From contig CAWDSS010000016.1 in assembly GCA_963805065.1 (NCBI GenBank), positions 65,084 to 129,083 of the forward strand: a stretch of 64,000 nt of DNA, written 5' to 3'. The notes beneath the pieces were generated by a model. That model searched no databases, was not told the DNA's origin, and worked only from the letters and a program-made list of their open reading frames with translations. A program made the translations under genes and the position numbers. Every line of letters starts with the position of its first letter. The first letter of the stretch is position 1. This document shows, one piece after another, positions 36,684-57,796 of the stretch. The DNA is from Candidatus Omnitrophota bacterium. Lineage in GTDB: Bacteria; Omnitrophota; Gorgyraeia; Gygaellales; Profunditerraquicolaceae.

Positions 36684-36700
36684 ATGAAAGAGAGGTTGAT

Positions 36701-37750: not shown

Positions 37751-38247
37751 GGCTTGCAGGAAAATCAGTCAAACTTTCAGATAACATCAACACGGATTTT
37801 ATTATTTCCGGACGGTATAAGTTCGCTATTACCGATATGAAAGAACTGTCTAAGCATATTATGGAAGACATTGATCCGGCTTTCCCTGCAAAAATAATCC
37901 CAGGGAAAACCATGATTGTTGCTGGAAAAAATTTCGGAATGGGGTCATCCCGCGAACAAGCCCCTTTGGTGATAAAAGAAGCAGGGATTGTGGCGGTTTT
38001 AGCTAAATCATTTGCCAGGATATTCTACAGGAACGCTTTTAATATAGGCTTAGCCTTGATTGAAACCGATACGGATAATATAGAAGAGAATGACGAGCTG
38101 GAAATAGATCTAGACAACGGCATAGTCAATAACCTTAGCAGGAATATGAAGTTGGCTATAAAGCCTTTTCCTGAATTTATGCAGAAGTTGTTAATAGAAG
38201 GCGGAATCGTCAATTACTATAAGAAGTACGGAGAGTTGAAGGTTTAA
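37747..38247 (+). CDS. Aconitase-family hydratase small subunit (LeuD/HacB-type)
   Basis: [12 protein letters not shown]...[14 protein letters not shown]. Its ATG overlaps the pilT stop (ATGA). Confidence 0.8.
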
Positions 38248-42470: not shown

Positions 42471-44270
42471 ATGATAAGCCAATTTTGTGACCTTAGCAGA
42501 TATTATTATTTTAATCCGCATGCCATCCCGCCTTTAATTCTGGGAGTCTTTATACTGGTATTGGCAATTTATGTGTTTAACCAAAACAGAAGATCAAGCA
42601 TCAACATTGCTTTCTCGATTTTTGGGTTAAGTATATTTCTGTGGTTCTTTGGCAACGCCATGATTTATTTCAGTAAAGACGACACAAACATAATCAACTT
42701 TTGGTGCAGATATTGCGTAAATTTGGGCGTAGTCTTTATTCCTGCTAATATCTATTTTTTCAGTGTTTCAATGACAAAAACCCTTAATATAAATAAATGG
42801 CGTGTATCCTTGAGTTATTTAGTTTCCTCATTCTTATATCTTACGGTAATAAAAAGCAATTATTTTGTCACAGGCTTCAAAAAGTATTACTGGGGTTGGT
42901 ATTCTCAGTTTGGGCCCGCATCATTTATTTATCTTATTTTCTTTTTTATTGTATTGTTATTAAGCGTAAAAAGCTTTTTATCTGCCCTTAAAAAATTGCC
43001 TCCGGGAACTGAAAGAAACCGTGTCAAGTATGTTTTTATTGGCCTTGCCCTGGCCAATCTCGGTTCAATTGATATCCTTCCAGGTTATGGTATCTTAGTT
43101 TATCCTTTGGGTTGCGTTTTTATATTTATCTTCGCTATTCTTATTGCCTTTGCTATCGTTAAATACAAATTGATGGTTATGACGCCGGCTTTGGCTGCGG
43201 ATACGATTATTGATACTATGGCAGATTCGCTGGTAGTGTTTAGCTTGGAAGGCAATATCCTCATGGTTAATCGTGTGACAGGCGAGTTTTTGGGGTATAA
43301 ACAAGAGGAATTAATCGGAAGGCCAGTAAATATACTTTTTGCCGAGAAAGACTTGTTTTCTGGTGAAGGGCTTAAGGCACTAACCACGAAAGGCAGGATA
43401 TATAATTACGAATTAAATTACCTGACTAAAAATAATGATAGGATTCCTGTGAGCCTTAATGCCGGGGCAATAATCGACAGAGATGGCGCTGTTTTGGGTA
43501 TCGCCGGAATTGCCAGGGATATCCGGGAAACAAAGAAACTGCAGTCCCAACTTATCCAATCAGCAAAGATGTCAGCTGTAGGCCAGTTGGGTGCGGGTAT
43601 AGCCCATGAATTAAATAACCCGTTGGGCGGAATCTTGGGTTACGCACAATTTATGCTGGAAAAGATTAAACAGCCGGATTTTGGGCCGGAGGAATTCCGA
43701 TCCTGCAAAGGTTATATTGAATCCATTGAGAAAGAATCATCTCGTAGCAAGAATATTATCAGTAGTTTATTGAGGTTCTCCAGGAAATCCATGATTAATC
43801 AGCCGGAATTAATGGATATAAGTTTGGCTCTTGAGGATACACTTGCAATTATCGGCCATCAGATGGAAGTAAGCAATATTAAAATCACTACCAGCCTCCA
43901 GCCAGGTTTATCCAAGATTATGGGCGTGGTTAACCTCATACAGCAGGTTTTCGCCAACATAATCCTTAACGCCCAGCAGGCCATGCCAACTGGAGGGGAG
44001 CTAAAGATTACAGCGCAAAATATAATGGATGAAAAAACCAAAGTTACTTCTATGGTGAAAATTGAGTTTACTGATACAGGCTGCGGCATATCCGAAGAGA
44101 ACCTCAGCCACATTTTTGAGCCATTCTTTTCTACAAAGGCGAAAGAAAAGAGTGTAGGCTTGGGTTTGGCCATCTGCTACCAGATAATTCAGGACCATAA
44201 AGGCAAGATTGAAGTAAAAAGTCAAGTAGGCAAAGGTTCCACCTTTACTATTACTTTGCCAATTCGCTAA
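42471..44270 (+). CDS. Sensor histidine kinase: N-terminal 7TM sensor, PAS, HisKA, HATPase
   Basis: ~220-aa polytopic N-terminus with a KYYWGWY motif. PAS region (DSLVVFSLEGNILMVN...). H-box GAGIAHELNNPLG. Also NAQQAMP and DTGCGISE...GLGLAI. Confidence 0.85.
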   Translation: MISQFCDLSRYYYFNPHAIPPLILGVFILVLAIYVFNQNRRSSINIAFSIFGLSIFLWFFGNAMIYFSKDDTNIINFWCRYCVNLGVVFIPANIYFFSVSMTKTLNINKWRVSLSYLVSSFLYLTVIKSNYFVTGFKKYYWGWYSQFGPASFIYLIFFFIVLLLSVKSFLSALKKLPPGTERNRVKYVFIGLALANLGSIDILPGYGILVYPLGCVFIFIFAILIAFAIVKYKLMVMTPALAADTIIDTMADSLVVFSLEGNILMVNRVTGEFLGYKQEELIGRPVNILFAEKDLFSGEGLKALTTKGRIYNYELNYLTKNNDRIPVSLNAGAIIDRDGAVLGIAGIARDIRETKKLQSQLIQSAKMSAVGQLGAGIAHELNNPLGGILGYAQFMLEKIKQPDFGPEEFRSCKGYIESIEKESSRSKNIISSLLRFSRKSMINQPELMDISLALEDTLAIIGHQMEVSNIKITTSLQPGLSKIMGVVNLIQQVFANIILNAQQAMPTGGELKITAQNIMDEKTKVTSMVKIEFTDTGCGISEENLSHIFEPFFSTKAKEKSVGLGLAICYQIIQDHKGKIEVKSQVGKGSTFTITLPIR

Positions 44271-44285
44271 AGCTACAAGTTATAT

Positions 44286-44332
44286 TCTCTGCCATCTATA
44301 CGTTAGTTGTCTGTAAAAGGCAGGGATTTTTT
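44286..44332 (+). terminator. Possible terminator after the first kinase gene
   Basis: TCTCTGCC (44286-93) pairs with GGCAGGGA (44319-26), followed by TTTTTT. The loop is long (25 nt). Confidence 0.4.
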
Positions 44333-44352
44333 ATGCTTATTTAAGATTTCAC

Positions 44353-44381
44353 TTGACAACATCTAGTTTTATCAGTATATA
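44353..44381 (+). promoter_or_regulatory. Consensus-like sigma70 promoter
   Basis: TTGACA (44353-58), 17-nt spacer, TATATA (44376-81). Lies 39 nt upstream of the HTH gene. Confidence 0.55.
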
Positions 44382-44419
44382 TATAACTACATTAAATTTG
44401 ATAAAAGAGAGGTGAAAAA

Positions 44420-44650
44420 ATGGCAAAGGTTAAAGAGATTTGGACAGCCAAGGAGGTAGCTGAATACCTCAATATCCACCCTCTCACAGTCCATAAGTAT
44501 GCGCGCGAAGGCAAGATACCGGCATTTAAGATTGGCATGGACTGGAGGTTTCACAGAAAATTTATCGAGCGGTGGATTAAGGAAAAATCAGCTTACAACG
44601 CCAATGGCAAAGAACGCAGGAAGTCGCTGCTAAATGGAAACACAAGTTAA
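44420..44650 (+). CDS. Excisionase-family (MerR-superfamily) helix-turn-helix DNA-binding protein
   Basis: WTAKEVAEYLNIHPLTVHKYAREGKIPAFKIGMDWRF. 76 aa, with its own promoter and SD. Confidence 0.75.
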   Translation: MAKVKEIWTAKEVAEYLNIHPLTVHKYAREGKIPAFKIGMDWRFHRKFIERWIKEKSAYNANGKERRKSLLNGNTS

Positions 44651-44673
44651 ATAGTTTACAAAACATAACTATA

Positions 44674-45666
44674 ATGAAATCTTTTGCTTATATACTTAGC
44701 CCTATAAGTATTAAACAGCTTAAGAGCTTTAGCCCTGCCCTTAAGATTCTTCCTGATTTTGTGATTAAGGCAAGCCTGAAAAATAGCCAGCCTTTTAAAT
44801 CTTTGCGCTACAAAAACATACTCTCGGTTCAAGGGCAAGAAGTGCAAGGCGTGCTTATTGTCTGTCCGCTTTTGCCCCGGCAAATGCTAGAGTCAGAGGA
44901 AAGTTTTGTTTTGGATAAGATTATTGCTGCCGGCAGGGTTGCCCAGCAGCTTGGCGCAAAAATAATCGGTTTAGGCGGTTATACCGCCATAGTGGCAGAT
45001 AAAGGATTAACAGTAGCCAAAAAACTAAATATGCCTGTAACCACGGGAAAGGCGCTTACAGCCTGGTCAATATTTGAGGCAATTTATAGGACGGCACGCC
45101 TGAAAAATATCCGGCTCCAGGATTCTTCACTGACAATTGTAGGAGGAGGGTCTCTGGGTTACCTTTGCGCAGCTAAATTATCCGGTTATATTCCTAAGAT
45201 AACCATTACTGATGGCAATGGAAAAACAGACCGGCTTCATCAGTGTAAAGAACGTATTTTATGCGTTAAACAAGTAGAGATAATTATAGAAGATAATGTG
45301 CATAATGCCGTAAAGAATGCAGATTTTATAATTAATGCTTCACGGTCTTTGCAGGCGTTGTTTAGCCTTGATGAATTAAAAGCGGGTGCAGTGGTATGCG
45401 ATGTTTCCGTTCCTTGGAATATTGCCGATAGCCGAAACAACCGCCATGACATCACGGTCATAAGAGCTGGATTAGTCAAGGTCCCTGATGGCTGCGATAC
45501 CATTGTTCACGCTTCATTAGCAGAAACCATGCTTTTGACATTAGAGGAAAAGTTCACCAGCTATTCTTTGGGGGATAATATAAATTTGGATAAGCTTGAG
45601 GAAATCGCAGACTTGGCAGTGCGCCACGGTTTTGAAATCTGGGTTCCTCAGGCGCCGCTATTTTGA
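44674..45666 (+). CDS. Homologue of cyanobacterial long-chain acyl-ACP reductase (AAR family; often annotated shikimate/quinate dehydrogenase-like)
   Basis: Collinear, by my recall of the AAR sequence: CPLLPRQML...AQQLGAKIIGLGGYTAIV..., VTTGKALTAW, Rossmann-like TIVGGGSLG, and the C-terminal ASLAETMLLTLEE...LEEIADLAVRHGFE, which resembles FAEAMLLEFEG...MEAIGEASVRHGFQ. Confidence 0.6.
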   Translation: MKSFAYILSPISIKQLKSFSPALKILPDFVIKASLKNSQPFKSLRYKNILSVQGQEVQGVLIVCPLLPRQMLESEESFVLDKIIAAGRVAQQLGAKIIGLGGYTAIVADKGLTVAKKLNMPVTTGKALTAWSIFEAIYRTARLKNIRLQDSSLTIVGGGSLGYLCAAKLSGYIPKITITDGNGKTDRLHQCKERILCVKQVEIIIEDNVHNAVKNADFIINASRSLQALFSLDELKAGAVVCDVSVPWNIADSRNNRHDITVIRAGLVKVPDGCDTIVHASLAETMLLTLEEKFTSYSLGDNINLDKLEEIADLAVRHGFEIWVPQAPLF

Positions 45667-45691
45667 TGGGCTTAAAAGAAAGGATAAACCC

Positions 45692-46126
45692 GTGATAGAA
45701 AATATAGAAGAATTGCAAAAAATATTACCGCAAAGATACCCGTTTTTGTTAATCGACAAAGTCACGCAATCATCACCGGGTAAATCCGTTACCGCCATAA
45801 AGAATGTTACAATTAATGACTGGTTTTTTGAGGGGCATTTCCCCGGTAATCCCGTGATGCCCGGGACGTTGATAATTGAGGCAATGGCGCAGGCATCAAT
45901 TTTACTTTATCACAGCGGCTTTGAAGATAAGCTGAAAAAAAGGCCGGATTATTATCTGGGTTCGGTTAAAGCAAGATTCCATCATCCGGTGGTACCGGGT
46001 GACCAGCTGAAACTTATCTCAGAGAGCGTTAAATTATTATCTACCGGAGCATTCGTTTCTGCTAAGGCCTTTGTGGAAGATAAATTAGTTGCCGAAGCGG
46101 ATTTGGTATTTGCCGTAAAGCCATGA
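45692..46126 (+). CDS. fabZ: FabZ-like 3-hydroxyacyl-ACP dehydratase (GTG start)
   Basis: ILPQRYPFLLIDKV...FFEGHFPGNPVMPGTLIIEAMAQ. AGGA lies 7 nt before the GTG at 45692. Confidence 0.8.
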   Translation: MIENIEELQKILPQRYPFLLIDKVTQSSPGKSVTAIKNVTINDWFFEGHFPGNPVMPGTLIIEAMAQASILLYHSGFEDKLKKRPDYYLGSVKARFHHPVVPGDQLKLISESVKLLSTGAFVSAKAFVEDKLVAEADLVFAVKP

Positions 46127-46178
46127 AACTTTTGAGGTGCGCAAAAATTAGCCACGTATTCATAAAAGGGGGGTTAAG

Positions 46179-46949
46179 ATGGAAAAAAGATTATATCCAA
46201 GAGTAGCTTCTGTATTACCCATAGAAATAAAATTTGAAGACACAGCCAACAATGTTTTATATAGCGGAAAAGGCCAAGTAGTTAATCTTAGCGAGACAGG
46301 CCTATGTATTATGCTGGATAAAAATTTACCCGCCTCATTACAGGGCTCTGTCTTATTTGACCCATCGTCAAAGTATCCCTCTTTTAAAACAAAGGCCAAA
46401 GTAATTTGGAGCAATAAATTGGAAGGGAAAAATAAATTCCATTGCGGAATCGATTTCCTAGATTTGGATACTAAAGAAATAAAAGTTTTTAAGCAAATAC
46501 TTTCAGATAACGGCAGGAAGTCATTTGTATTTGAGAAAACAGTTTACCTTGGCGATACCAATGCAGAAGGCAATGTTTATTTTGCAAAATATCTTGATTG
46601 GCAGGGGATGGCAAGAGAGGAATTTTATAAACAAAACTTTCCTGTCGAAGCGTTAAAATCAGGGCTTAAGCTTATTACGGTGCATGCCTCGATAGATTAT
46701 AAGCATGAAGCCTTCCTGTTTGATGAAATCTTAATCGCAGTTTTTGTTGCGAATGTTAAAAAAGCTAGTTTAGATTTGATATTTAATTACAGGAATAAAG
46801 CAACCAAACAGTTATTAGCCACAGGGAGCCAAACAATAGCTTTTGGCGACTTTAAGGGCAATTTAATACCGATACCCAAAGAAATCAAGGAAATCGTTAA
46901 GTATTTCTTATCAGAAGAAACTACTAACAAAGCAGGAGACAAATTATAG
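46179..46949 (+). CDS. PilZ domain fused to a 4HBT/YbgC-type hotdog thioesterase
   Basis: N-terminal RLYPR (RxxxR) and NLSETG (D/NxSxxG) PilZ motifs. C-terminal half: VYLGDTNAEGNVYFAKYLDWQGMAREEF (YbgC-like). Confidence 0.7.
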   Translation: MEKRLYPRVASVLPIEIKFEDTANNVLYSGKGQVVNLSETGLCIMLDKNLPASLQGSVLFDPSSKYPSFKTKAKVIWSNKLEGKNKFHCGIDFLDLDTKEIKVFKQILSDNGRKSFVFEKTVYLGDTNAEGNVYFAKYLDWQGMAREEFYKQNFPVEALKSGLKLITVHASIDYKHEAFLFDEILIAVFVANVKKASLDLIFNYRNKATKQLLATGSQTIAFGDFKGNLIPIPKEIKEIVKYFLSEETTNKAGDKL

Positions 46950-46951
46950 AA

Positions 46952-49114
46952 ATGAATTTTTATTCTATAGCGCCTCTTTTTGCTTCCCTACTTTTCTTAT
47001 TATTAGGAATATTTTGTTTATCCGTAAGCAAAATAAGAAGGGAGGTTATTTTATTTACCTCTCTGTGTTTTGTTACTTTTATCTGGCAATTCAGTTGGTT
47101 TATTTTGTTTAATACAACTTCCGACAAAATTGCCTCGCTAGTCATAAAGATTGGCTATACTGGTATAATATTCATCCCCATCGCTTATTTTCATTTCATG
47201 GTTAGTTTCTTAAAAATCGAAAATTACAAAGTAATCTTAAGGATATCTTATGCAATAGCATTTATTTTAGTAATTCTATTATGGACATCAAAATATTTTG
47301 TGAATGGCTATTATAAGTTCTATTGGGGTTATTATCCAAAGGCAGGCCTTTTACATCCCCTTCACTTGCTGCAAGTTTTCACGGTTACTATGTGGATGTT
47401 GTATTTGTTATGGAATAGTATAAATAAATTTAAGCTGGAACCGATGAAATATAACCAGCTAAAATACGTAATGTTAGGCATACTCTTTTATTTCCCCGCC
47501 GCCTCTGATTACCTTGTCAATTATGGCGTAGAGTTTTACCCCAAAGGTTTTATTTCCCTGTCTATTTTTGCCATAATTACTACATATGCCATTATACGTT
47601 ATCGCCTGATGGATTTAAAAATTGCGGTTACCAGGATCGGTATATTTATTTTAGTCTATACCTTACTGCTTGGTCTTCCTTTTGCCGTAGCTGTAGGGTT
47701 AAAGGGGTGGTTAGTTGATAAATTCGGGCCGGGATGGTGGATGTTTCCCTTAATATTAATGGCTGTCCTTGCTACCGTCGGGCCTTTTATTTACATTTTC
47801 CTGCAAAAAAAAGCAGAAGATAGGTTGTTACGGGAGCAAAGGAAATATCAGGAAACGCTTAAGCAGGCCTCGGTAGGCATGACTCGCATTAGAAACCTCG
47901 ATAGGCTGCTGGATTTGATAGCGCACATTGTGACAAAAACAGTAAAGATTTCCTACGCCGCGATATACCTTTACAATAAAGACACAAATGAATATGTCCT
48001 GCAAGTCAGCCGTGACAAAGGAAGAATACCAATACCCAAAGTAAATCCTATTAATCCGCTGGTTGCCTGGATTATGGTTGAACGTGAACCGCTAATTTAC
48101 GAAGAAGTAAAACGCAAAATGGAAGATGCCAAAGATGAAACTTGCAAGCTTCTTGAAGAAAATATGCGACTTTTAACTGCAACTGTGATTATTCCCAGTT
48201 TCCTGGAAGATAAATTTATCGGCTTCTTTGTCCTGGGTGACAAGCTTTCAGGGCAAATTTACACTCCGGATGACCTGAATGTTTTTCAGGTCCTCGCCAG
48301 CCAGGCTGCCCTTGCCATTGAAAACGCGCAATTTTATGAAGACGCAAAAGAGATGCAGGAGCAGATTGCGCAGGCAGAGAAAATGGCTACCATAGGAACC
48401 ATGGCTGATGGATTGTCCCATCAGATAAACAACCGTTTTTATGCGCTTTCTCTGATTGCGGGAGATACCATTGATACCATAAAAACTACAGATACTACCA
48501 AATGCACTCCTGAAGTAAGAACAATGATTGACGAGATTAACCATGCGCTTGAACGTATTCAGACTAATGTTATGCAGGGTGGAGAAGTGGTAAAAGGCAT
48601 TTTAAAATATTCCAAAAAAGGCAGCGGGCAATTTGAGGCGCTGGATTTGGACGCAATCATAGACAATACCTTAGAAATGGTTCAGTACAAGGTAAAGTTG
48701 TCGGAAATTGACCTTGTGCGCGATTATAAGGATATTCCCAAAATAAAGGGGAACATGACGCAATTACAGGAAGTGTTTTTCAATTTTATTGATAATGCCT
48801 ATGATGCGATTGTAGAGCGGCGTACGACACTAAAAGAAGATGGCTACCGCGGCAGGATTATTATTTCAGCCCGGCCAAAGGATAAATTCCTGGAAATTAT
48901 TGTTGAAGATAACGGTATGGGAGTAAAAGATTTCAACAATACAAAAATTTTCACGCCATTTTTTACCACTAAAACCTCATCCAATAAGGGCACAGGGCTA
49001 GGCCTTTACGTAATCAAGCGCATAATCACCGATACGCATAAAGGCACAATAAGCTTTGAATCCAAACACGGCATCGGCACCCGCTTCATTCTGGAACTTC
49101 TCACCGCCAAATAG
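46952..49114 (+). CDS. Sensor histidine kinase: N-terminal 7TM sensor (paralogue of 42471), GAF, HisKA-like, HATPase
   Basis: Polytopic N-terminus with KFYWGYY. GAF-like region (ISYAAIYLYNKDTNEYVL...FIGFFVLGDK). H-box MADGLSHQINN. Also DNGMGV...GTGLGLY. Confidence 0.85.
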   Translation: MNFYSIAPLFASLLFLLLGIFCLSVSKIRREVILFTSLCFVTFIWQFSWFILFNTTSDKIASLVIKIGYTGIIFIPIAYFHFMVSFLKIENYKVILRISYAIAFILVILLWTSKYFVNGYYKFYWGYYPKAGLLHPLHLLQVFTVTMWMLYLLWNSINKFKLEPMKYNQLKYVMLGILFYFPAASDYLVNYGVEFYPKGFISLSIFAIITTYAIIRYRLMDLKIAVTRIGIFILVYTLLLGLPFAVAVGLKGWLVDKFGPGWWMFPLILMAVLATVGPFIYIFLQKKAEDRLLREQRKYQETLKQASVGMTRIRNLDRLLDLIAHIVTKTVKISYAAIYLYNKDTNEYVLQVSRDKGRIPIPKVNPINPLVAWIMVEREPLIYEEVKRKMEDAKDETCKLLEENMRLLTATVIIPSFLEDKFIGFFVLGDKLSGQIYTPDDLNVFQVLASQAALAIENAQFYEDAKEMQEQIAQAEKMATIGTMADGLSHQINNRFYALSLIAGDTIDTIKTTDTTKCTPEVRTMIDEINHALERIQTNVMQGGEVVKGILKYSKKGSGQFEALDLDAIIDNTLEMVQYKVKLSEIDLVRDYKDIPKIKGNMTQLQEVFFNFIDNAYDAIVERRTTLKEDGYRGRIIISARPKDKFLEIIVEDNGMGVKDFNNTKIFTPFFTTKTSSNKGTGLGLYVIKRIITDTHKGTISFESKHGIGTRFILELLTAK

Positions 49115-49160
49115 GGTAAACCCTAAAATTATTATTGAAATTCGGAAATTGTGCTATAAT

Positions 49161-49270
49161 GAAGCCCACCCAGGCTAAAGCCCAGGGTTTCCCTCCTGTC
49201 GGAGGGCAAGCTTTGGGCGGAATGCCCAAGCGGCCAAGGCTTATCCGCGCCCTGAAAGGGCGCGGTTTTA
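49161..49270 (+). ncRNA. Candidate structured RNA (unclassified leader, riboswitch or sRNA) with its own promoter and intrinsic terminator
   Basis: Extended -10 TGCTATAAT (49152-60) with TTGAAA at 49135-40. A GC-rich segment with three hairpins: CCCTCC-TGTC-GGAGGG (49191-206), TTTGGGC-GGAAT-GCCCAAG (49212-30) and CCGCGCCC-TGAAA-GGGCGCGG (49245-65), followed by TTTTA. Confidence 0.5.
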
Positions 49271-49327
49271 TGCCGCGGGGTATGAAAAAAAACTATGGAT
49301 AACTTGTTATTAAATGGGGTGAAAAAT

Positions 49328-49711
49328 ATGGCGAAATTATTGATAGTGGACGATGAAGCTGATGTCCGTGAATTTGCGGCAAAATTCTTTAAACGGCGCA
49401 AAATCGAAGTGATGATTGCCGGTAGCGGTGAAGACGCCTTAACTGCCTTAGAAAAGTATAAGGCAGATTTAGTGCTTCTTGATATTAAGATGGAAGGCAT
49501 TGACGGCATAGAAACCTTAAGGCGCATAAGAGAAAGAGATAAAGATGCGCGCGTGATAATGGTCACCGGCAGAAAACCCGATGAATCAGGCTCGTTTGAA
49601 AAATGCCGTGAGTTAGGCGCCATAGATTATATTCACAAGCCCCTTGAACTGGATGAGCTGGAAAGAGTAGTGTTACGAGAGCTGTCCCAAGACTCCCCGA
49701 ATCAAACATAA
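49328..49711 (+). CDS. Single-domain CheY-like response regulator
   Basis: MAKLLIVDDE...DLVLLDIKMEG...MVTG...IHKP. The ORF-track start at 49295 is probably too early. Confidence 0.85.
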   Translation: MAKLLIVDDEADVREFAAKFFKRRKIEVMIAGSGEDALTALEKYKADLVLLDIKMEGIDGIETLRRIRERDKDARVIMVTGRKPDESGSFEKCRELGAIDYIHKPLELDELERVVLRELSQDSPNQT

Positions 49712-50877
49712 TGAAAATCGATTACAAGAAAGAGTTAGAAGGCGCATCAAAAACCATGATTTTGGTGCACGAGCCGCAAACCCTGATAAGGATGATTGTG
49801 CGCATGATTGTGCAAAGGGTAGAGGTTGAACATGCTGCTATCCTTTTGCATGACCAGTTCAAGGATTCTTATATCCTGACTGTTTCACGCGGCGCAGCAG
49901 GGTTAAAAATACCTCCGGGATTCGCGCGCATGGATTCTGATAACCCTCTGATTTATTTTTTCAGGGAAAATCTGGTCAAGCAAATTTTTAATGACGGCGC
50001 GGTTGTCTATGATGAAGCCTTAAAGATATTAAAAAGCAAGAAAATCAAGCCTGAACTGGAAGAGAAGCTAAAGAAAGCTTTGTATCAAATGGAAATATTT
50101 GAGGCAGTTATCTGCATCCCCAGTTACTTCAGGGATGAATTGCTGGGCCTGCTTCTGTTGGGCCGCAAAAAGAACAGGAAAAAGTTTGACCAGCATGAAT
50201 TGGATTTTTTTGTGGCCTTGGCTTCGGACGTTGCCATGGCCATCCGTAATGCCAGGTTGTTCTCAGAGCTTGAACAAGAGCTCCAAAAAAAGCAACGCCT
50301 TTTTGTGCATACTACAATTGCCTTGGCAGCTGCCATTGATGCCAAAGACCATTACACGCATGGCCACACATCAAGGGTAACCAATTTAAGCCTTGAGATT
50401 GCCAAGTACATGAAGGAAAAGAACAGGAATGTCTTTAATGATAAGTTTTTGGAGCATCTCCATATCGCGGGGCTCTTACATGACATAGGTAAAATCGGAA
50501 TCCCTGAGTCCATATTAAATAAAGACGGCCCTTTAAATGATACAGAATCTAAAAAAATGCAAGAGCATCCCTCTGTAGGAGCATCTATATTGCAGCCGAT
50601 AAAGGAACTAGAAGAGGCTATCCTGGGCGTAAAATACCATCATGAAAAATACGACGGCTCAGGCTACCCCGAGGGCCTTAAAGGCGAACAAATTCCTCTC
50701 ATTGCCGCTATTATTTCTGCAGCAGATACATTTGATGCCATGACTTCAGACAGGCCATACCGCCGCGCTTTAACCAAGGCAGAGGCAGTTGAAGAAATAA
50801 AACGTGTGAAAGGTAAGCAGCTTAGCCCTGAAGTCGCAGATGTAATAGTCGAGCTTTTTAAACTCCAGAAAATCTAA
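49711..50877 (+). CDS. GAF domain plus HD-GYP domain protein (putative c-di-GMP phosphodiesterase)
   Basis: HTSRVTNL, LLHDIGKIGIP, HHEKYDGSGYPEGLKG, ADTFDAMTSDRPYR. Confidence 0.85.
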   Translation: MKIDYKKELEGASKTMILVHEPQTLIRMIVRMIVQRVEVEHAAILLHDQFKDSYILTVSRGAAGLKIPPGFARMDSDNPLIYFFRENLVKQIFNDGAVVYDEALKILKSKKIKPELEEKLKKALYQMEIFEAVICIPSYFRDELLGLLLLGRKKNRKKFDQHELDFFVALASDVAMAIRNARLFSELEQELQKKQRLFVHTTIALAAAIDAKDHYTHGHTSRVTNLSLEIAKYMKEKNRNVFNDKFLEHLHIAGLLHDIGKIGIPESILNKDGPLNDTESKKMQEHPSVGASILQPIKELEEAILGVKYHHEKYDGSGYPEGLKGEQIPLIAAIISAADTFDAMTSDRPYRRALTKAEAVEEIKRVKGKQLSPEVADVIVELFKLQKI

Positions 50878-50880
50878 TTC

Positions 50881-51993
50881 ATGCAACCGCGCCGCATAAT
50901 CTTAATGTATATTTCAGAAGTCTCCGGACATCACAGCGCGACTCTCGCTATTGAAAAGGCGATTAAAATGCTATCTTGCGATACGCAAATTTTAAATATC
51001 AACGCCTTTAATTATACAAATCCCATTTCCGAAAAAATAGTCAATAAGATTTACATGGGCATTATCAAAATCACGCCTAAGGTATGGGATTACCTTTATG
51101 ATAATCCCAAGGTTGTAGAGAGAATATCTAAAATGAAGGAAAAGCTGCATAAGTTTAATTCCCTGAAACTGAAAAATCTTTTTGATGATTTTAATCCGGA
51201 CGCAGTCCTTTGCACCCAGGCATTCCCCTGCGGGATGGTAGCGGATTATAAGAAAGAATTTAATTCCCAAATTCCCTTGGTTGCGGTGCTCACGGATTAT
51301 GTCCCGCATTCATATTGGGTTTATGATACCGTGGATTACTATGTTACGCCTTCTGAAGAGGTATCACGGCGCCTGGTAAAAAAAGGGGTTGCGGCAGAAA
51401 AAATAAAATCACTGGGGATTCCTATTGACCCCAAATTTAACAAACCGCAAAACAAGGAATCTATCAAGCGTAAATTAAAGCTAAGCACGCAATTGCCAAC
51501 CATATTAATCATGGGGGGAGGCCAGGGATTGGGGCCGATTAAAACTATCATCAAATCATTGGAAAAGAGCCTTAAGCCTATTCAGGAAATTATCGTTACC
51601 GGCACCAATAAAAAGCTATATAAATCCCTGAAAAGAAAAATTAAAAAATATAAAAATAAAATCTTGCTTTTCAGGTATGCCGATAATATTGAAGAATTAA
51701 TGGCTGCTTCTGATATTATTATCAGTAAGCCCGGAGGGGTGACGACTGCAGAAGTCCTGGTAATGAATTTGCCTATGGTCATTGTAAAACCCATACCCGG
51801 CCAGGAAGCCAATAATACCGCGTATCTCACACAGAAAGAGGCAGCAATCAAAATAGATGACCCCAAGAAAACAAACCAGGCAATTGAGGATTTATTAAAG
51901 CACGCTGATAAGTTAAGGCATTTGCGGGAAGCTGCCAGCCGCATAAGTAAACCGCAGGCGAGCCTCGATATAGCCAGGCTCTTATTAAGGTAA
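50881..51993 (+). CDS. MGDG-synthase/UgtP-like diacylglycerol glycosyltransferase (GT28)
   Basis: N-terminal GHHSA...-type MGDG_synth pattern. C-terminal GGGQGLGP...SKPGGVTTAEVL...PGQEANN. Confidence 0.75.
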   Translation: MQPRRIILMYISEVSGHHSATLAIEKAIKMLSCDTQILNINAFNYTNPISEKIVNKIYMGIIKITPKVWDYLYDNPKVVERISKMKEKLHKFNSLKLKNLFDDFNPDAVLCTQAFPCGMVADYKKEFNSQIPLVAVLTDYVPHSYWVYDTVDYYVTPSEEVSRRLVKKGVAAEKIKSLGIPIDPKFNKPQNKESIKRKLKLSTQLPTILIMGGGQGLGPIKTIIKSLEKSLKPIQEIIVTGTNKKLYKSLKRKIKKYKNKILLFRYADNIEELMAASDIIISKPGGVTTAEVLVMNLPMVIVKPIPGQEANNTAYLTQKEAAIKIDDPKKTNQAIEDLLKHADKLRHLREAASRISKPQASLDIARLLLR

Positions 51994-51995
51994 CC

Positions 51996-52862
51996 GTGTA
52001 TAATTATATACTTTACAGGATTGGCCAGTTTATCGCACTTAATACACCGTTAAAAATCGGGTATAGGTTGGCGATATTTTTTTCCGATGTGCATTATTTA
52101 TTTGCCGGTAAAGACCGCCGCAGTGTAACTGGCAACCTCAAAGCAATATTTCCTCAAAAATCAGGCAAAGAAATTGCCGCAATCAGGATATGGATGTTCA
52201 GGAATTTTGCCAAATACCTGGTGGATTTCTTCCGTTTCCAGAATTTGGATAAGGAATACATAAGGAGCAATATCAAAATAGAAAACATAGATTATTTTGA
52301 CCAAGCCCTTAAAAAGGGCAAGGGTGTAATTATCCTAACCGCGCATTTGGGAAATTGGGAGCTTGGCGGAGTGGTAATTGCTCTTTTAGGGTATCCGTTG
52401 TGGGCAGTGGTCCTTCCGCATAGGCATCAACAGGTAAATAAATTTTTTAATTTTCAACGAGAAAGTAAGGGGATAGGCATAATAGAGCTGGGAAAAGCTG
52501 TCAGGCTGTCGCTAAATGTTTTGAAACAAAATAAAGCCCTGGCATTGGTTGGCGACAGAGATTTTACGGAAACCGGAATTGCCTTAGACTTTTTTGGCAA
52601 ACCCACTCTTTTCCCTGAAGGCCCGGCAGCATTTGCATTAAAAACAGGAGCGGCTATAGTCCCCGGATTTATGTTTAGAAACAGGGATGACACCTTTACT
52701 TTAAAAATTGAAAAGCCTCTTGAATTTGTCGCCACGGGAGATAAAATACAGGATGAGACCCAGATAATCTTAAAATATAAAGGTATTTTTGAGGATTATA
52801 TTAAAAGGTTTCCCGATCAGTGGTATATGTTCAGGCAATTCTGGATACAGGAAAAAAAATGA
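51996..52862 (+). CDS. LpxL/HtrB-family lipid acyltransferase (lysophospholipid acyltransferase superfamily)
   Basis: ILTAHLGNWELGG (HX4-type acyltransferase region), LVGDRDF, PEGPAAFALKTGAAIVP. Confidence 0.7.
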   Translation: MYNYILYRIGQFIALNTPLKIGYRLAIFFSDVHYLFAGKDRRSVTGNLKAIFPQKSGKEIAAIRIWMFRNFAKYLVDFFRFQNLDKEYIRSNIKIENIDYFDQALKKGKGVIILTAHLGNWELGGVVIALLGYPLWAVVLPHRHQQVNKFFNFQRESKGIGIIELGKAVRLSLNVLKQNKALALVGDRDFTETGIALDFFGKPTLFPEGPAAFALKTGAAIVPGFMFRNRDDTFTLKIEKPLEFVATGDKIQDETQIILKYKGIFEDYIKRFPDQWYMFRQFWIQEKK

Positions 52863-53530
52863 AGACCTGTGTAATCATTCCTACATACAATGAAGCTAAG
52901 GCCATAGGGGATTTAGTGTGTTCGATACGCAGCCAGAATTTTGAAGTGGTTGTGGTAGACGATGGTTCGGCTGATAAAACTTTCAAGATAGCCAGCGATT
53001 GCGGAGCAACTATTTTACGCAATGAAAAAAACCTGGGTAAGGGAGCGTCTTTAGTAAAGGGTTTTAATTACGCTTTGGCTAATAATTTTGACGCAGTGGT
53101 TACTATGGATGGTGACGGGCAGCATCTTGCCGAAGACATTCAGCAATTTATAAACGTGGCAAAAAATTCGGACAGCGATATCTTTATCGGTAACAGGATG
53201 CACAAGCCCAGAAATATGCCCTGGGTACGCGTTTTAACCAACAACGCAATGTCCTGGTTTATATCGGGTCTTGTGAAGCAAAAGATTCCCGATTCGCAGT
53301 GCGGGTTTAGGCTTATTAAGAAAGAAGCATTAAAAAAAATTGATTTTATAACCTCCAATTTTGAGATTGAATCTGAAATGCTTATTAAGGGTGCGCGTTT
53401 AGGTTTTAAAATTGAGTCCGTTTCCATAAAAACTGTTTACTCGGGAGAGAAAAGCAGGATTAATCCCTTTGTTGATACGTTTAGATTTTTACGATTCGCT
53501 ATAGGAGAGCTATGGATTTCCAAACGTTAA
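52859..53530 (+). CDS. Family 2 glycosyltransferase (polyprenol-phosphate sugar transferase-like)
   Basis: MKTCVIIPTYNEA, VVVDDGSADKT, MDGDGQH, QCGFR. The ATG overlaps the preceding stop (ATGA). Confidence 0.8.
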   Translation: MKTCVIIPTYNEAKAIGDLVCSIRSQNFEVVVVDDGSADKTFKIASDCGATILRNEKNLGKGASLVKGFNYALANNFDAVVTMDGDGQHLAEDIQQFINVAKNSDSDIFIGNRMHKPRNMPWVRVLTNNAMSWFISGLVKQKIPDSQCGFRLIKKEALKKIDFITSNFEIESEMLIKGARLGFKIESVSIKTVYSGEKSRINPFVDTFRFLRFAIGELWISKR

Positions 53531-54223: not shown

Positions 54224-54730
54224 ATGTTAGCAATAATTTTGGTTTTTATGGGAATATTATTAAGATTTGCACCGCACGCGCCAAATTTCACGCCAGTTGC
54301 AGCGATTGCATTATTCGGCGGGGCATATTTAAATAAAAGAAGTTCTCTCATCGTCCCATTGGCCCTTATGATAATCAGCGATTATTTATTGGGGTTACAT
54401 AATGTGGTGTTTTTTACCTGGGGAGGGTTTGTCTTGGTTGCCTTGTTAGGTACGCGCCTTAAGGGCAATAAAGGCGTTGCCAGGACCATAACCTTTTCTT
54501 TGGCATCAGCAATTATATTTTATATCGTGTCAAACTTTGGCGTGTGGTTAATGGGTTGGTATCCTCCCACCTTAAATGGCCTTATTGATTGTTATGCCTT
54601 AGCAATTCCTTTCTTTAGGACCTTTACGCTGGCAACATTGATATATACTGCCGTATTTTTCGGCATTTATGAATTAGCCGCGCATTTTGTTAAACAGACA
54701 AAGTTCGCGCATGCTCTTTTAACAAAATAA
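54224..54730 (+). CDS. Small polytopic membrane protein of unknown function (a link to B12 uptake is suggested by adjacency only)
   Basis: 168 aa, ~5-6 hydrophobic helices, PNFTPVAAIALFGGAY motif, AGGAGG SD. Confidence 0.5.
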   Translation: MLAIILVFMGILLRFAPHAPNFTPVAAIALFGGAYLNKRSSLIVPLALMIISDYLLGLHNVVFFTWGGFVLVALLGTRLKGNKGVARTITFSLASAIIFYIVSNFGVWLMGWYPPTLNGLIDCYALAIPFFRTFTLATLIYTAVFFGIYELAAHFVKQTKFAHALLTK

Positions 54731-54740
54731 TTTTTTGTCT

Positions 54741-54885
54741 TATATGGACTAGGGAAGGCCGTAAAAGCGGCCACAGTCCCGCTGCTGTATAGAGGGACGA
54801 AATTCCGCAATAAGCCACTGGTGTTTTAGCCGGGAAGGCGCGGAAGAGTAGGATGATCTCTTGAGTCAGAAGACCTAGGCATATA
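54741..54885 (+). promoter_or_regulatory. Cobalamin (B12) riboswitch aptamer
   Basis: P1 TATATG/CATATA; AGGGAAGGCCGTAAAAGCGGCCACAGTCCCGCTGCTGT; GCCACTG; GGGAAGGC; B12-box-like GAGTCAGAAGACCTAGGC. Confidence 0.85.
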
Positions 54886-54938
54886 ATCAAAAATATAATA
54901 ACCATTTGGTCCGTGGACAGGCCAAGGGCTAAGAGGGT

Positions 54939-54976
54939 AACCCTTGATGTCAATTGTGATATCAAGGGTTTTTTAT
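54939..54976 (+). terminator. Intrinsic terminator acting as the riboswitch expression platform
   Basis: AACCCTTGAT (54939-48) pairs with ATCAAGGGTT (54961-70), followed by TTTTATTTT. Confidence 0.8.
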
Positions 54977-55000
54977 TTTAACGTCCGGAATGGAGAAAAG

Positions 55001-57070
55001 ATGGGAAAGAGTATTCAGGTTGTAAATAGTTCATTTTTATTAGCATTTTTTATATCTATAACAGTTCCTGCTTTTGCTGATTCGCCAGAGGTGGATTTAG
55101 ATAAGATCGTTGTGACTCCCTATCGCTATGAAGAGAAATTAGGCAACACAGCGTCAAGTGTTACGATAATTACTCCTGGAGACATAGCTAGCTCTAATGC
55201 TCGCAATGTAGTCGGTATGCTTAGGTCAATACCTGGGGTTACAGTACGGGATACTCTTGGAAACGGCACACAAGCAGTTGTGGACATAGCAGGATTTGGA
55301 GAACAGGCGCCACTTAACGTATTGGTATTAGTTGACGGCAGGCGGGCAAACAATGTTGATTTAAGCGGTGTGGACTGGAGTCAAATCCCGCTTGACGAAG
55401 TGGAGCGTATCGAGGTTGTTCGCGGAGGCTCTGCTGCGGTGCTATATGGCGATAATGCATCTAGCGGTGTAATTAATATTATTACCAAAAAGGGCACCGG
55501 CAAACCAAAAATAGACATAGAAACTGAATACGGCAGCTATGATATGAACAAAGAAAAACTATCTTTAGGCGGCAAAGCTAACGATAAACTTTCTTATTGG
55601 TTCAGCCTGGGACGCGATTCTACCAATGGTTATCGCAATAACAACTTTGATAAAAATAGCGACTTTGCTTCTAAAATCAATTATGATTTTAGTGATATAC
55701 TGTCCGCACATTTTGACTCTGGGTTTCATGCTTGGACTTACGGCATGCCCGGGGCATTGTTTCAAAGTGATATAGACCAGCACGGTAGGACGTTTGCCCG
55801 ATTCGGCAATGACCATGCTAATGGTAAGGACTATTATTTTGTTTTTGGACCAAAAGTCCAATTTCCAGGATTAGGAAATCTCGATTTAGATTTTAATTAC
55901 CGTCAGAATGATGTTGATTCATATTATCTGACCTCAGGGCACGATACTTACAGGAACAGTATCGAAACTTTTGGGGCAACGCCGAAGTATACATTAGGCA
56001 ATAGTATTCTTAACCATGATAATAAATTCATTGCGGGGTTAGATTTTTACCGGTCATTATATAGCTCAAAGACATATCTTATCTCTAATGACAACGCGTT
56101 GGATCAATATACGGATATTCACAAGGATTCATTAGGAAGCTACCTGCAAGATGAGTTTTCAATCTTTAAACAGTTAGTTTTAGTAGGCGGCTACCGCCAT
56201 GAATTTGCAGAGTACACATTCGCTTATCACAATAATGTTTATCCCTTATATTATCCCGATCAAGATAGTAAAGTAAAATTTAATATGGATTCTTTTAACA
56301 GCGGCCTTACGTATACTTATAAAGATGATTCCAATCTTTTTTTAAATGTGAGCAGAAGCTTTCGTTTTCCCGAGGTAGATGAGTTTACCTATTTTGATGC
56401 AACTTCTTATCAAACGCTGCTTAATACCGGCCTTAAGCCACAATCTTCGATAGATTACCAGGTTGGTTTACGGCATAAATTTTCTGACCGTTTTAGGGTG
56501 AGCTTATCATTATTTAGAATGAATGTTAAAAATGAGTTGTATCTTAATGCCACGGATACCTGGGATGGTTCTGAGTGGAATAGTAAGAATGAAAATTATG
56601 ACAGGACTGTTCATGAAGGCCTAGAATCATCCCTGGATGCAAAGCTTAACGATTGGGTCGAATTCCTGGGAAATTATACTTTTACCAATGCTTATTTTGA
56701 CGGCGGACAATATAGCGGGAATGAAATACCGTTAGTGCCTAAGCATAAAGTAAGCGTTGGGTTAAAATTTGCATTACCAATGAATTTAGCTTTTAATATT
56801 ACCGGTAATTATGTCGGCTCTAGATATTATCTGAATGATCAGGCAAACGCTTATTCCCGGCTTAACGGGTATATGGATACCGATACAAACTTGTCCTGGC
56901 GCTATAAAGATTGGATGGTTACTTTCGGTATTAATAATCTCTTTAATAAACAATACTCAGAGATTGCCGGAGTATTACAAGGATTTTCCCCCGGGCACGC
57001 TGTGGGTGAAGAATTTTATTATCCAAACCCAGGGAGAAATTTTATACTGAAGGTTGACTACGCCTTTTAA
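55001..57070 (+). CDS. TonB-dependent outer-membrane receptor (BtuB-like, downstream of the B12 riboswitch)
   Basis: Signal peptide MGKSIQVVNSSFLLAFFISITVPAFA. TonB box/plug: DKIVVTPYR...VTIITPGDI...IPGVTV. C-terminal ...NFILKVDYAF. Confidence 0.85.
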   Translation: MGKSIQVVNSSFLLAFFISITVPAFADSPEVDLDKIVVTPYRYEEKLGNTASSVTIITPGDIASSNARNVVGMLRSIPGVTVRDTLGNGTQAVVDIAGFGEQAPLNVLVLVDGRRANNVDLSGVDWSQIPLDEVERIEVVRGGSAAVLYGDNASSGVINIITKKGTGKPKIDIETEYGSYDMNKEKLSLGGKANDKLSYWFSLGRDSTNGYRNNNFDKNSDFASKINYDFSDILSAHFDSGFHAWTYGMPGALFQSDIDQHGRTFARFGNDHANGKDYYFVFGPKVQFPGLGNLDLDFNYRQNDVDSYYLTSGHDTYRNSIETFGATPKYTLGNSILNHDNKFIAGLDFYRSLYSSKTYLISNDNALDQYTDIHKDSLGSYLQDEFSIFKQLVLVGGYRHEFAEYTFAYHNNVYPLYYPDQDSKVKFNMDSFNSGLTYTYKDDSNLFLNVSRSFRFPEVDEFTYFDATSYQTLLNTGLKPQSSIDYQVGLRHKFSDRFRVSLSLFRMNVKNELYLNATDTWDGSEWNSKNENYDRTVHEGLESSLDAKLNDWVEFLGNYTFTNAYFDGGQYSGNEIPLVPKHKVSVGLKFALPMNLAFNITGNYVGSRYYLNDQANAYSRLNGYMDTDTNLSWRYKDWMVTFGINNLFNKQYSEIAGVLQGFSPGHAVGEEFYYPNPGRNFILKVDYAF

Positions 57071-57085
57071 AATTCTGTCTTGAAA

Positions 57086-57796
57086 ATGATTGCAGGCTGT
57101 GTTAATCTAGACTCTATGTTTAGGGATAAGCTTTTTAGGAATGCAATTCTAGCCTCTTTAATTGCCCACAGCCTGCTTTTATTTCAAAACCCGCATTTGA
57201 ATTTTCTGGTTGCGCCAAAAAAAGACAATAATATTGAGGTAACTTACATAAAGCCGAATTTAATGGAAAAAACAGGCGTAAGGCTAAGTGAGGCCAGTAA
57301 AGAGCCATTCTTAAGAATGGATCAGAAAATAGTAACGGCCAAAAATGTCCCGCCGCCTTTTATTGACAGGGAAGCAATTTTTAAAGGCGCTAAGATGCTT
57401 CCTCCCGAGCAGCCCGACATTAATAAGCCTACCCTCATGAGCCAGGAGGCCATTCTTTTTAAGAAGAAGATTACCATGCCTGCTTTGGATCTGGATAAAA
57501 TAAATAACCCCTCTTACATAAGCTATTACCAGATTGTGCGTGAAAAAATAAAACGCGCAGCTTACAGGAATTACTCGCACCAGGATACAGGAGAGGTTTA
57601 TCTTTCTTTCATTGTATCAAACGACGGCTTTCTAAAAGATGCGCGCCTGGTAGAACAGAAATCTTCTGTCAATCCGTATCTTAGGCAAATTGCCTTAAGA
57701 AGCCTTAAGGATGCATCTCCTTTCCCGAATTTCCCCAAAAACCTGGATTATCCCAGTCTTTCCTTTAACGTGGTCATTTCCTTTGAAATTGAATAA
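57086..57796 (+). CDS. tonB: TonB-family energy transducer (C-terminal TonB domain)
   Basis: N-terminal TM AILASLIAHSLLLF. C-terminal GEVYLSFIVSNDGFLKDARLVEQKSSVNPYLRQIALRSLKDASPFPNFP. Start uncertain (57080, 57086 or 57116). Confidence 0.7.
   Translation: MIAGCVNLDSMFRDKLFRNAILASLIAHSLLLFQNPHLNFLVAPKKDNNIEVTYIKPNLMEKTGVRLSEASKEPFLRMDQKIVTAKNVPPPFIDREAIFKGAKMLPPEQPDINKPTLMSQEAILFKKKITMPALDLDKINNPSYISYYQIVREKIKRAAYRNYSHQDTGEVYLSFIVSNDGFLKDARLVEQKSSVNPYLRQIALRSLKDASPFPNFPKNLDYPSLSFNVVISFEIE

Follow-up and report, generated by a model that had tools for sequence, protein, structure and literature searches.

The 64,000-nucleotide stretch analysed here (the window; Candidatus Omnitrophota bacterium, contig CAWDSS010000016.1) carries, at 42471-53530, eleven plus-strand genes separated by short gaps or overlapping, among which a hotdog thioesterase fused to a PilZ domain, a receptor domain for cyclic di-GMP (c-di-GMP), is followed by HK2, a histidine kinase with a seven-transmembrane (7TM) sensor of the HisKA_7TM family. 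Across genomes this type of 7TM sensor tracks the thioesterase, and HK2 is a mosaic whose sensor part resembles kinases of other thioesterase loci more than it does its own orthologue. We propose that an acyl product freed by the thioesterase is sensed by the co-acquired 7TM domain and relayed through a receiver (REC), an HD-GYP phosphodiesterase and c-di-GMP back to the PilZ domain; judging from the genes, we give this loop slightly less than an even chance. The tight packing of the genes, which an earlier note on this DNA had described, is borne out by the listing of open reading frames (ORFs), and searches against Pfam and NCBIfam for domains and the PDB for structural relatives confirm nearly every domain that it had named. 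From the gene for the protein resembling acyl-ACP reductase (AAR; ACP, acyl carrier protein) to the GT28 glycosyltransferase gene, the sequence is 100% identical in an independent assembly (L001), and the closest relatives of several window proteins are named Omnitrophota/Omnitrophica proteins from metagenome-assembled genomes (MAGs). The features on which the proposal rests are the following.

46179..46949, + strand: PilZ domain fused to a hotdog thioesterase (PilZ E 1.5e-11; 4HBT_2 E 3.6e-16).
46952-49114, + strand: HK2, with HisKA_7TM, GAF and HATPase (Pfam).
46952..47600, + strand: 7TM sensor part of HK2, about amino acids 1-215, of the thioesterase type (identity comparison, GC content).
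47601..49114, + strand: resident cytoplasmic part of HK2, with the last transmembrane (TM) segment and linker, GAF, H-box and HATPase (Pfam GAF, HATPase_c).
49328..49711, + strand: stand-alone CheY-like receiver (PF00072 E 6e-28).
49711..50877, + strand: GAF-HD-GYP phosphodiesterase (HD_5 E 3e-37).

A genome collection scanned with the thioesterase as anchor yielded 20 loci from about six lineages (Omnitrophota, Endomicrobiia/Elusimicrobiales, Planctomycetes, Nitrospirae, Saganbacteria and Obscuribacterium); in these, as in all related loci designated L below, gene labels derive from tblastn and simple ORF calls. A HisKA_7TM protein lies no more than about 2 kb downstream of the thioesterase, with or without PilZ, in 19/19 informative loci, usually at a distance of 6-250 bp. 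The earlier note had the 7TM sensors bracket the other genes, a role that does not do them justice: the 7TM domain is what tracks the thioesterase. The thioesterase-type 7TM region is carried on varied outputs, namely a GAF-kinase, a PAS-kinase (L002) or a GAF-HD-GYP protein without kinase (L007, L008), and it also occurs as a stand-alone 7TM protein, between thioesterase and kinase in L011, L013, L014, L018 and L019 and upstream of the thioesterase in L015. A receiver often stands 3′ of the kinase at thioesterase loci, and in L017 and L018 so does an HD-GYP protein, the one of L017 being joined to REC in the manner of RpfG. Apart from an LPLAT close to L009 and, in L015, a GT2 at some distance, the AAR-like, FabZ, GT28, LPLAT and GT2 genes of the window are not conserved partners of the thioesterase; a FadL/TodX outer-membrane channel gene adjoins L010. 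Alignment of the window 7TM region (46952-47641) with those of 13 related loci reveals the invariant or near-invariant residues W45, Q46, W49, H81, G126, Y128, P129, H135, D186, N190, Y191, G192, Y196 and P197, and such aromatic and polar positions would be compatible with a defined binding site.

HK2 itself belongs to HisKA_7TM by its membrane part (PF16927, 40.2 bits against a cutoff of 28.6) and contains the H (SHQINN), N and G boxes of a kinase. Its residues 241-720 are 75-98% identical to the orthologue in L026, the closest relative; residues 1-200 are 12-28% identical to that orthologue, 38-62% to L003 and 32-55% to the Elusimicrobiales kinase of L009, and the latter two kinases both follow a PilZ-thioesterase. 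A thioesterase lies directly upstream (as a remnant in L025) in 12/12 non-window loci whose 7TM region is at least 37% identical to that of HK2, and the 7TM regions of loci without a thioesterase, all orthologous kinases included, are 19-36% identical to it. Between any two orthologous kinases, the cytoplasmic part is 61-86% identical and the 7TM part 16-36%, the exceptions for the 7TM part being the pairs window-L003 (48%), L045-L110 (83%) and L040-L053 (43%). The GC content falls to 0.31-0.35 across 46200-47600 (0.33-0.35 in the thioesterase gene, 0.31-0.33 in the 7TM-coding part), as compared with 0.40-0.46 on either side, and in L026 the thioesterase is replaced by SRPBCC and a Cys-bearing AAR and the 7TM region is a different one. 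The simplest reading of these comparisons is a joint transfer of thioesterase and 7TM sensor domain in a single cassette (about 46179-47600), which would have replaced the resident enzyme and sensor, with a probable junction near residue 210-240 of HK2.

Both halves of the upstream enzyme retain the residues expected of their families. The PilZ domain (PF07238, 44.9 bits against a cutoff of 22.5) contains the motifs RxxxR (R4-x3-R8) and NxSxxG (N36-L-S-E-T-G41), with R4, R8 and G41 invariant in 16 homologues, and in a structural model of the fusion protein (pLDDT 83.9) it forms a beta-barrel followed by a helix. The hotdog half is a member of the 4HBT/YbgC-type family (PF13279, 60.2 bits against a cutoff of 25.5). 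Its invariant residues D126, N128, Y134 and R146 are, by analogy with CalE7, the putative catalytic ones. The nearest solved relatives are DynE7, CalE7, SgcE10 and EspE7 (sequence E 8e-15 to 2e-11), thioesterases of enediyne polyketide synthases (PKSs) that the predicted model also matches in fold (Foldseek, TM-score on target 0.81-0.91) and with which the segment (E/D)TN..GNVYF..WQG..RE shares the Asn, Tyr and Arg. These enzymes hydrolyse and release ACP-tethered products (PMC3107222). Although it is closest to them in sequence and fold, the window enzyme has no enediyne PKS beside it, carries an N-terminal PilZ domain and, unlike DynE7, has an Asp instead of a Glu before the TN motif, as in YbgC-type enzymes. 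Its genomic partners are small type II ACP and ketosynthase (KS) genes and the sensor kinase: a Nitrospirae MAG encodes an ACP-PilZ-thioesterase fusion beside a PilZ-PilZ-KS protein (L022, 7449-10777), a metagenome contig has the order ACP, PilZ-KASIII, PilZ-thioesterase (L005, 8171-10828), an ACP gene stands directly upstream of the thioesterase in L011 and L020, and a KS gene lies upstream in L018 and L020. Because of these ACP fusions and ACP or KS neighbours, and because the solved relatives release ACP-tethered products, the substrate is presumably an acyl-ACP. The PilZ fusions to KS, KASIII and ACP-thioesterase suggest that c-di-GMP controls several steps of a small ACP-dependent pathway. 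PilZ-thioesterase fusions are rare (about 40 clusters at 50% identity among 1.84 billion representatives), and we found no PilZ fused to an acyl-ACP thioesterase in the literature searched.

The two proteins encoded downstream of HK2 also appear intact. The receiver has the acidic pocket DD, the phospho-acceptor Asp in LVLLD and the conserved Thr and Lys, and it accompanies the HD-GYP gene in L109 and L110 even without an adjoining kinase. In the HD-GYP protein (HD_5, 128 bits), the motifs LLHDIGK and HHEKYDGSGYP align with those of V-cGAP3 (E 6e-34) and of PmGH (E 6e-30), a c-di-GMP phosphodiesterase that shares its GAF-HD-GYP architecture and whose HD and HHExxDGxGYP motifs are both preserved in the window protein. 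Unlike PmGH and V-cGAP, the window enzyme shares its operon with a stand-alone receiver and three enzymes of glycolipid type. The GAF domains of HK2 and of the HD-GYP protein are related to each other (about 26% identity, E 1e-11 to 8e-18), so both proteins may read the same cytoplasmic ligand.

In the loop that we propose, the hotdog thioesterase would hydrolyse an acyl-ACP to a free fatty-acyl product; its substrate may be one of the intermediates, enoyl or hydroxyacyl, on which the adjacent FabZ acts. The cognate 7TM domain of HK2 would detect this product or its effect on the membrane, upon which HK2 would phosphorylate the stand-alone receiver. The receiver would in turn control the GAF-HD-GYP enzyme and thereby the level of c-di-GMP, whose binding to the PilZ domain would adjust the activity of the thioesterase and close the loop. 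We infer which substrate, ligand and phosphotransfer partners take part and what sign the feedback has, as well as whatever, other than co-transcription, may tie the loop to the glycolipid genes. For the c-di-GMP part of the scheme we count the conserved PilZ motifs, the intact HD-GYP motifs, the PilZ-KS and PilZ-KASIII fusions (L005, L022) and the REC and HD-GYP proteins that follow the kinase in L017 and L018. A lipid signal is further favoured by the FadL/TodX channel gene at L010 and by the chain-releasing or tailoring character of the enzymes encoded immediately 5′ of the orthologous kinase in relatives.

The logic of this loop is that of the DSF/Rpf systems of Xanthomonas and Burkholderia (RpfF, RpfC, RpfG), in which a free fatty acid acts through a multi-TM kinase on an HD-GYP protein. 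There, dehydratase and thioesterase chemistry on 3-hydroxyacyl-ACP, a multi-TM kinase and a REC-HD-GYP protein are encoded by clustered genes (PMC4504480), and the fused REC-HD-GYP of L017 resembles RpfG. The proteins are nevertheless unrelated in the relevant part. No crotonase (ECH) domain was detected in any of the eleven genes, and FabZ and a hotdog thioesterase stand in place of the crotonase RpfF; HK2, a 7TM-GAF kinase without REC or histidine phosphotransfer (HPt) domains, replaces RpfC, a hybrid with 5 TM segments, HisKA, REC and HPt; and the REC and GAF-HD-GYP proteins are encoded by separate, overlapping genes, unlike RpfG. A PilZ domain on the synthase-like enzyme, which would provide direct feedback by c-di-GMP, has no Rpf counterpart, and the acyl product of the window loop, unlike that of Rpf, is a putative one.

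The remaining features of the stretch are needed to judge how far the loop extends.

42471..44270, + strand: HK1, a histidine kinase with a multi-TM N-terminus, PAS, HisKA and HATPase (Pfam, NCBIfam).
44353..44381, + strand: promoter-like site TTGACA-17 nt-TATATA ahead of the HTH_17 gene (read from the sequence).
44420..44650, + strand: HTH_17 (excisionase/MerR-like) DNA-binding protein (PF12728 E 3e-15).
44674..45666, + strand: AAR*, an AAR-family paralogue without the catalytic cysteine (TIGR04058, PigE, PDB AAR).
45692..46126, + strand: FabZ-type 3-hydroxyacyl-ACP dehydratase (PF07977 E 8e-31; NF000582), most likely starting at 45692.
49152..49275, + strand: extended -10 element TGCTATAAT at 49152-49160, then a GC-rich structured RNA (minimum free energy, hairpin).
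50881..51993, + strand: GT28/UgtP-like diacylglycerol (DAG) glycosyltransferase, MGDG_synth (MGDG_synth E 8e-28; diglucosyl-DAG synthase model E 5e-69).
51996..52862, + strand: LpxL/PatA-type acyltransferase, Lip_A_acyltrans, LPLAT (PF03279 E 1e-45).
52859..53530, + strand: GT2, polyprenyl-phosphate glycosyltransferase-like (PF00535 E 7e-30), most likely starting at 52859.

These genes fall into two groups that occur together in the window and apart elsewhere. The downstream group (49328-53530: REC, GAF-HD-GYP, GT28, acyltransferase and GT2; unit B) is an operon common to the Omnitrophota-like relatives examined. A tight block of GAF-HD-GYP, GT28, LPLAT and GT2, with or without REC, is present in the window, L026, L035, L068, L109, L110 and L111, with L040 as the exception, and it recurs with or without the genes upstream: in L109 it follows secretin genes and in L111 it comes directly after the lipoyl-carrier gene, the upstream group being absent. 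That upstream group (44420-49114; unit A) is a variable lipid island at a fixed chromosomal site, with HTH_17 and the Cys-less AAR* first and the 7TM-GAF kinase last. The site was recognised on Omnitrophota-like contigs in a metagenome scan anchored on AAR* and in three look-ups anchored on GT28, and its order is isocitrate/isopropylmalate dehydrogenase, malate/lactate dehydrogenase, E3, LplA/B, lipoyl carrier, HTH_17 and AAR*. HTH_17 is directly 5′ of the AAR-like gene in 37/45 informative related loci and is also found upstream of the thioesterase loci L003, L011, L018, L019 and L020. Highly variable acyl enzymes follow 3′ of this pair, and then come the 7TM-GAF kinase and a receiver. The variable enzymes include a PlsC-type acyltransferase, an SRPBCC-Cys-bearing AAR fusion, a GMC oxidoreductase, sets of ketoreductase (KR), KS, KS, ACP and FabZ, a fatty-acyl reductase, CrtI-like oxidoreductases, a B12 radical SAM enzyme, a LuxD-like acyltransferase-methyltransferase fusion and an aminotransferase resembling alpha-oxoamine synthase (a family read from its SNNYLGLA motif). 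The contents of the island differ even between close relatives (L026-L108; for example L027 8001-17017, L035 10001-17914 and L040 1402-7953).

AAR* aligns over its full length with AAR and PigE (TIGR04058 E 2.7e-18; PigE N-terminal domain E 5e-43) and keeps the Rossmann motif VGGGSLG, which places it in the same fold family as cyanobacterial AAR and the reductase domain of PigE. Its score of 66.4 bits is nonetheless far below the TIGR04058 cutoff of 449.7, and the residue matched to the Cys of PigE and to position 294 of AAR, the site of the acyl-enzyme Cys294, is a Ser within IVHASLAETMLL. The best AAR match of AAR*, entry 6JZZ, likewise has a Ser there. Among 116 members of the subfamily, the position is occupied by S in 71, C in 16, A in 16, P in 6, D in 4, G in 2 and F in 1, and a sister AAR paralogue in related islands and many other bacteria keeps the Cys (YACMAETMLL). 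The Ser at the Cys position and the low score leave the conversion of acyl-ACP to aldehyde by AAR* unsupported, and its function as an acyl-ACP reductase by the canonical mechanism is rejected, since the catalytic Cys is missing. Also unlike cyanobacterial AAR, its constant partner gene is the HTH_17 regulator; we noticed no aldehyde-deformylating oxygenase (ADO) partner and no ferritin-like neighbour among the Pfam-annotated genes, where neither a dedicated ADO search nor an ADO HMM was used. Among the proteins for which the earlier note had asked for profile searches, the PilZ-thioesterase is upheld in both its domains, and the AAR-like protein as a relative below the family cutoff. FabZ exceeds its model's cutoff (NF000582, 152.7 bits against 113), has the HFPG His and the IIEAMAQ Glu, and has an 84% identical orthologue at the same place in L026.

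GT28 passes both family cutoffs (MGDG_synth 98.1 bits, Glyco_tran_28_C 64.8 bits) and stays below that of the diglucosyl-DAG synthase equivalog models (233 against 500), so that its assignment is to the family and not to a particular sugar and acceptor. The acyltransferase (PF03279, 156 bits) has the HX4E motif in AHLGNWE, and its best NCBIfam models, PIM acyltransferase and lipid A lauroyl acyltransferase, are both below cutoff. The GT2 gene, which overlaps the acyltransferase gene by ATGA, matches AglJ and PpgS-like models at E 1e-30, again below cutoff.

The earlier note had read the whole stretch as a single pathway under c-di-GMP control, in which acyl-ACP is diverted (to aldehyde, alcohol or free acid) and enters a membrane glycolipid by way of GT28, LPLAT and GT2. 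Genes for acyl handling and for glycolipid-type enzymes do surround a PilZ receptor and an HD-GYP enzyme, L026 preserves the entire gene order from AAR* through GT2, and the order kinase, REC, HD-GYP, GT28 is kept in L035 and L068 at 58-80% identity. HD-GYP is, moreover, tightly coupled to GT28-LPLAT-GT2 in 7/8 informative loci, and in the Elusimicrobiales MAG L009 the PilZ-thioesterase gene has an LPLAT gene 1 kb upstream. The halves nevertheless exist independently: thioesterase and kinase occur without GT genes in L003 and all other thioesterase-anchored loci, and the HD-GYP-GT28-LPLAT-GT2 block occurs without acyl genes or kinase in L109 and L111. The stretch therefore consists of two units. 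The neighbourhood comparison for which the earlier note had called gives a divided answer, with HD-GYP syntenic with GT28, LPLAT and GT2 in several genomes, and AAR-like, FabZ and thioesterase genes not co-localised with GT28, LPLAT and GT2 outside the window lineage. Within that lineage, the unrelated housekeeping genes upstream are equally syntenic, which makes gene order weak evidence of shared function. GT28 is also a slowly evolving core gene of Omnitrophota (68-80% identity in >120 clusters), whereas the acyl genes are variable; AAR*, like most of its subfamily, lacks the catalytic Cys, so that reduction to aldehyde or alcohol is doubtful; and a freed acid would need re-activation, for which no acyl-CoA or acyl-ACP synthetase was seen among the scanned genes (38.2-57.8 kb and a few others). 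We consider a single pathway improbable.

Two other explanations leave the glycolipid genes aside. The 7TM kinases might read a bulk property of the bilayer (thickness, fluidity or packing) while the thioesterase trims the acyl-ACP pool and c-di-GMP serves as an additional input. Sister islands with PlsC acyltransferase, KR/KS/ACP/FabZ sets, CrtI-like oxidoreductases and B12 radical SAM enzymes would suit such membrane homeostasis, as would an orthologous kinase core that is kept whatever the upstream enzymes are. A bulk sensor, however, needs no co-replacement, whereas the 7TM subtype tracks the thioesterase across phyla against the relationships of kinase cores and organisms, and the many invariant polar and aromatic residues suggest a defined site; we regard this explanation as unlikely. 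Alternatively, thioesterase and 7TM protein could be a membrane enzyme or transport pair that accepts, flips or transfers the acyl chain, with the kinase reporting flux and no signalling by the product, an idea to which the kinase-less, stand-alone 7TM proteins beside the thioesterase in six loci and the conserved His, Asp and Glu of the thioesterase-type 7TM lend some appeal. The only role known for HisKA_7TM, however, is that of an input domain in signalling proteins; we recognised no catalytic motif in it, and in most loci it is fused to a kinase or HD-GYP, which leaves such a pair very improbable.

Several observations also weigh against the product-sensing loop itself. The 7TM region is hypervariable among orthologous kinases generally (16-36%), and fast evolution of TM segments together with AT-richness explains part of the drop in identity and of the GC trough in HK2. 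Among methyltransferase-linked kinases, the 7TM regions of L045 and L110 are 83% identical and that of L053 is only 32-36% identical to both; a rule that the 7TM subtype always follows the upstream gene was rejected, as it holds for the thioesterase and only partly for these kinases. Related loci were fetched with the thioesterase, AAR* or GT28 as the anchor, not the kinase, and all organisms carrying them are uncultivated. FabZ is not a conserved partner of the thioesterase, and the LPLAT beside L009 and the PlsC-type acyltransferases of sister islands would suit a lipid product that stays in the membrane better than a free signal. In the PDB, the HD-GYP domain best matches an enzyme specific for 3'3'-cyclic GMP-AMP (3'3'-cGAMP), so the choice between c-di-GMP and 3'3'-cGAMP is not certain; the PilZ domain in the window argues for c-di-GMP. 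Finally, no GGDEF motif occurs in the 64 kb (by regular expression, not HMM) and the window has no diguanylate cyclase. In tblastn with the relatives' KS, ACP and KR proteins as queries, no homologues were found in the 64 kb; within these searches, the earlier note's statement that GGDEF protein, ACP and ketosynthase are absent holds.

The product-sensing loop may be one case of a broader arrangement, which we put forward as rather unlikely at present. HisKA_7TM domains would be fast-swapping receptors for fatty-acyl-derived molecules, each moving with the enzyme that releases its ligand, and together they would form an undescribed quorum-type lipid system with c-di-GMP feedback. The releasing enzymes would be the hotdog thioesterase, the LuxD-like acyltransferase-methyltransferase, the Cys-bearing AAR and the alpha-oxoamine-synthase-like enzyme; the latter three are found directly 5′ of the orthologous kinase in relatives and are of chain-releasing or tailoring types. 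If this is true, a lipid signalling set is widespread in uncultivated Omnitrophota, Elusimicrobia, Planctomycetes and Nitrospirae, phyla in which signalling has hardly been studied by experiment. Domain catalogues list HisKA_7TM as a bacterial and archaeal sensor; the literature searched names no ligand for it, and the co-transferred thioesterase would offer the first concrete, testable ligand class. The fusions of PilZ to thioesterase, KS, KASIII and ACP-thioesterase would likewise extend c-di-GMP control to acyl-chain metabolism. Literature searches on HisKA_7TM, on PilZ with thioesterase/4HBT and on Omnitrophota with c-di-GMP returned no description of the system. The tight gene order in the Omnitrophota-like relatives examined can conceal two independent units, which calls for caution when a neighbourhood is read as a pathway.

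Two further systems resemble parts of the stretch. HK2 has the 7TM-GAF-kinase layout of PrsK from PEP-CTERM/exosortase systems and matches the PrsK model TIGR02916 end to end (residues 13-716), with 94.8 bits against a cutoff of 300; a PEP-CTERM/PrsK assignment is rejected on this score, and, unlike in PrsK systems, no exosortase or PrsR/PrsT was seen among the annotated genes around the HK2 locus. The dehydratase, thioesterase, LpxL-type acyltransferase and GT2 recall ApeI/P, ApeK, ApeD and ApeJ of aryl-polyene (APE) clusters, and the window dehydratase has an ApeI-like Pfam match. In contrast to those clusters, the dedicated set is missing from the window, where tblastn found no homologue of KS/chain-length factor (CLF), ACP or KR, and the acyltransferase and GT2 are part of unit B, which is conserved on its own.

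Between the two units, the GC-rich structured leader with a terminator that the earlier note had described is real: 49160-49275 forms a stable fold (minimum free energy -61.2 kcal/mol, z -4.2), with an intrinsic-terminator-like hairpin and T-run at 49245-49269. The region at 49.1-49.3 kb matches no Rfam family in gathering or E-value mode and contains no tRNA (ARAGORN); a PreQ1 assignment was discarded as a sub-threshold match at chance level (22 bits against a cutoff of 39). The window contains no second copy of this RNA, and L026 lacks it but retains TGCTATAAT.

At the other end, the promoter-like site ahead of HTH_17 is present as the earlier note had it, although it is near-consensus rather than consensus and is unlisted by the automatic consensus scan; sigma-70 and terminator scans gave counts no higher than in shuffled sequence and carry no weight alone. 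The membrane N-terminus of HK1 is 33% identical to the 7TM region of HK2 (E 4e-20), and by this measure the two kinases share a paralogous membrane N-terminus; no HisKA_7TM match was obtained in that region of HK1 at E<=0.01. HK1 has no adjoining response regulator. In all relatives examined (L026, L027, L003 and others), no HK1 gene separates the lipoyl-carrier gene from HTH_17, so HK1 looks like a lineage-specific insertion there.

Outside the eleven genes, a cobalamin riboswitch (RF00174, 80.8 bits) precedes a TonB-dependent receptor gene and a TonB-like gene at 54720-57796, and in L109-L111 the corresponding place behind GT2/PCMT is taken by genes for cobalamin salvage and transport. At 35430-38247, the genes for the large and small subunits of an aconitase-family (LeuC/LeuD-like) enzyme are separated by that of a T2SSE/PilT-like ATPase (36701-37750), an unusual order found also in L026, L027 and L111.

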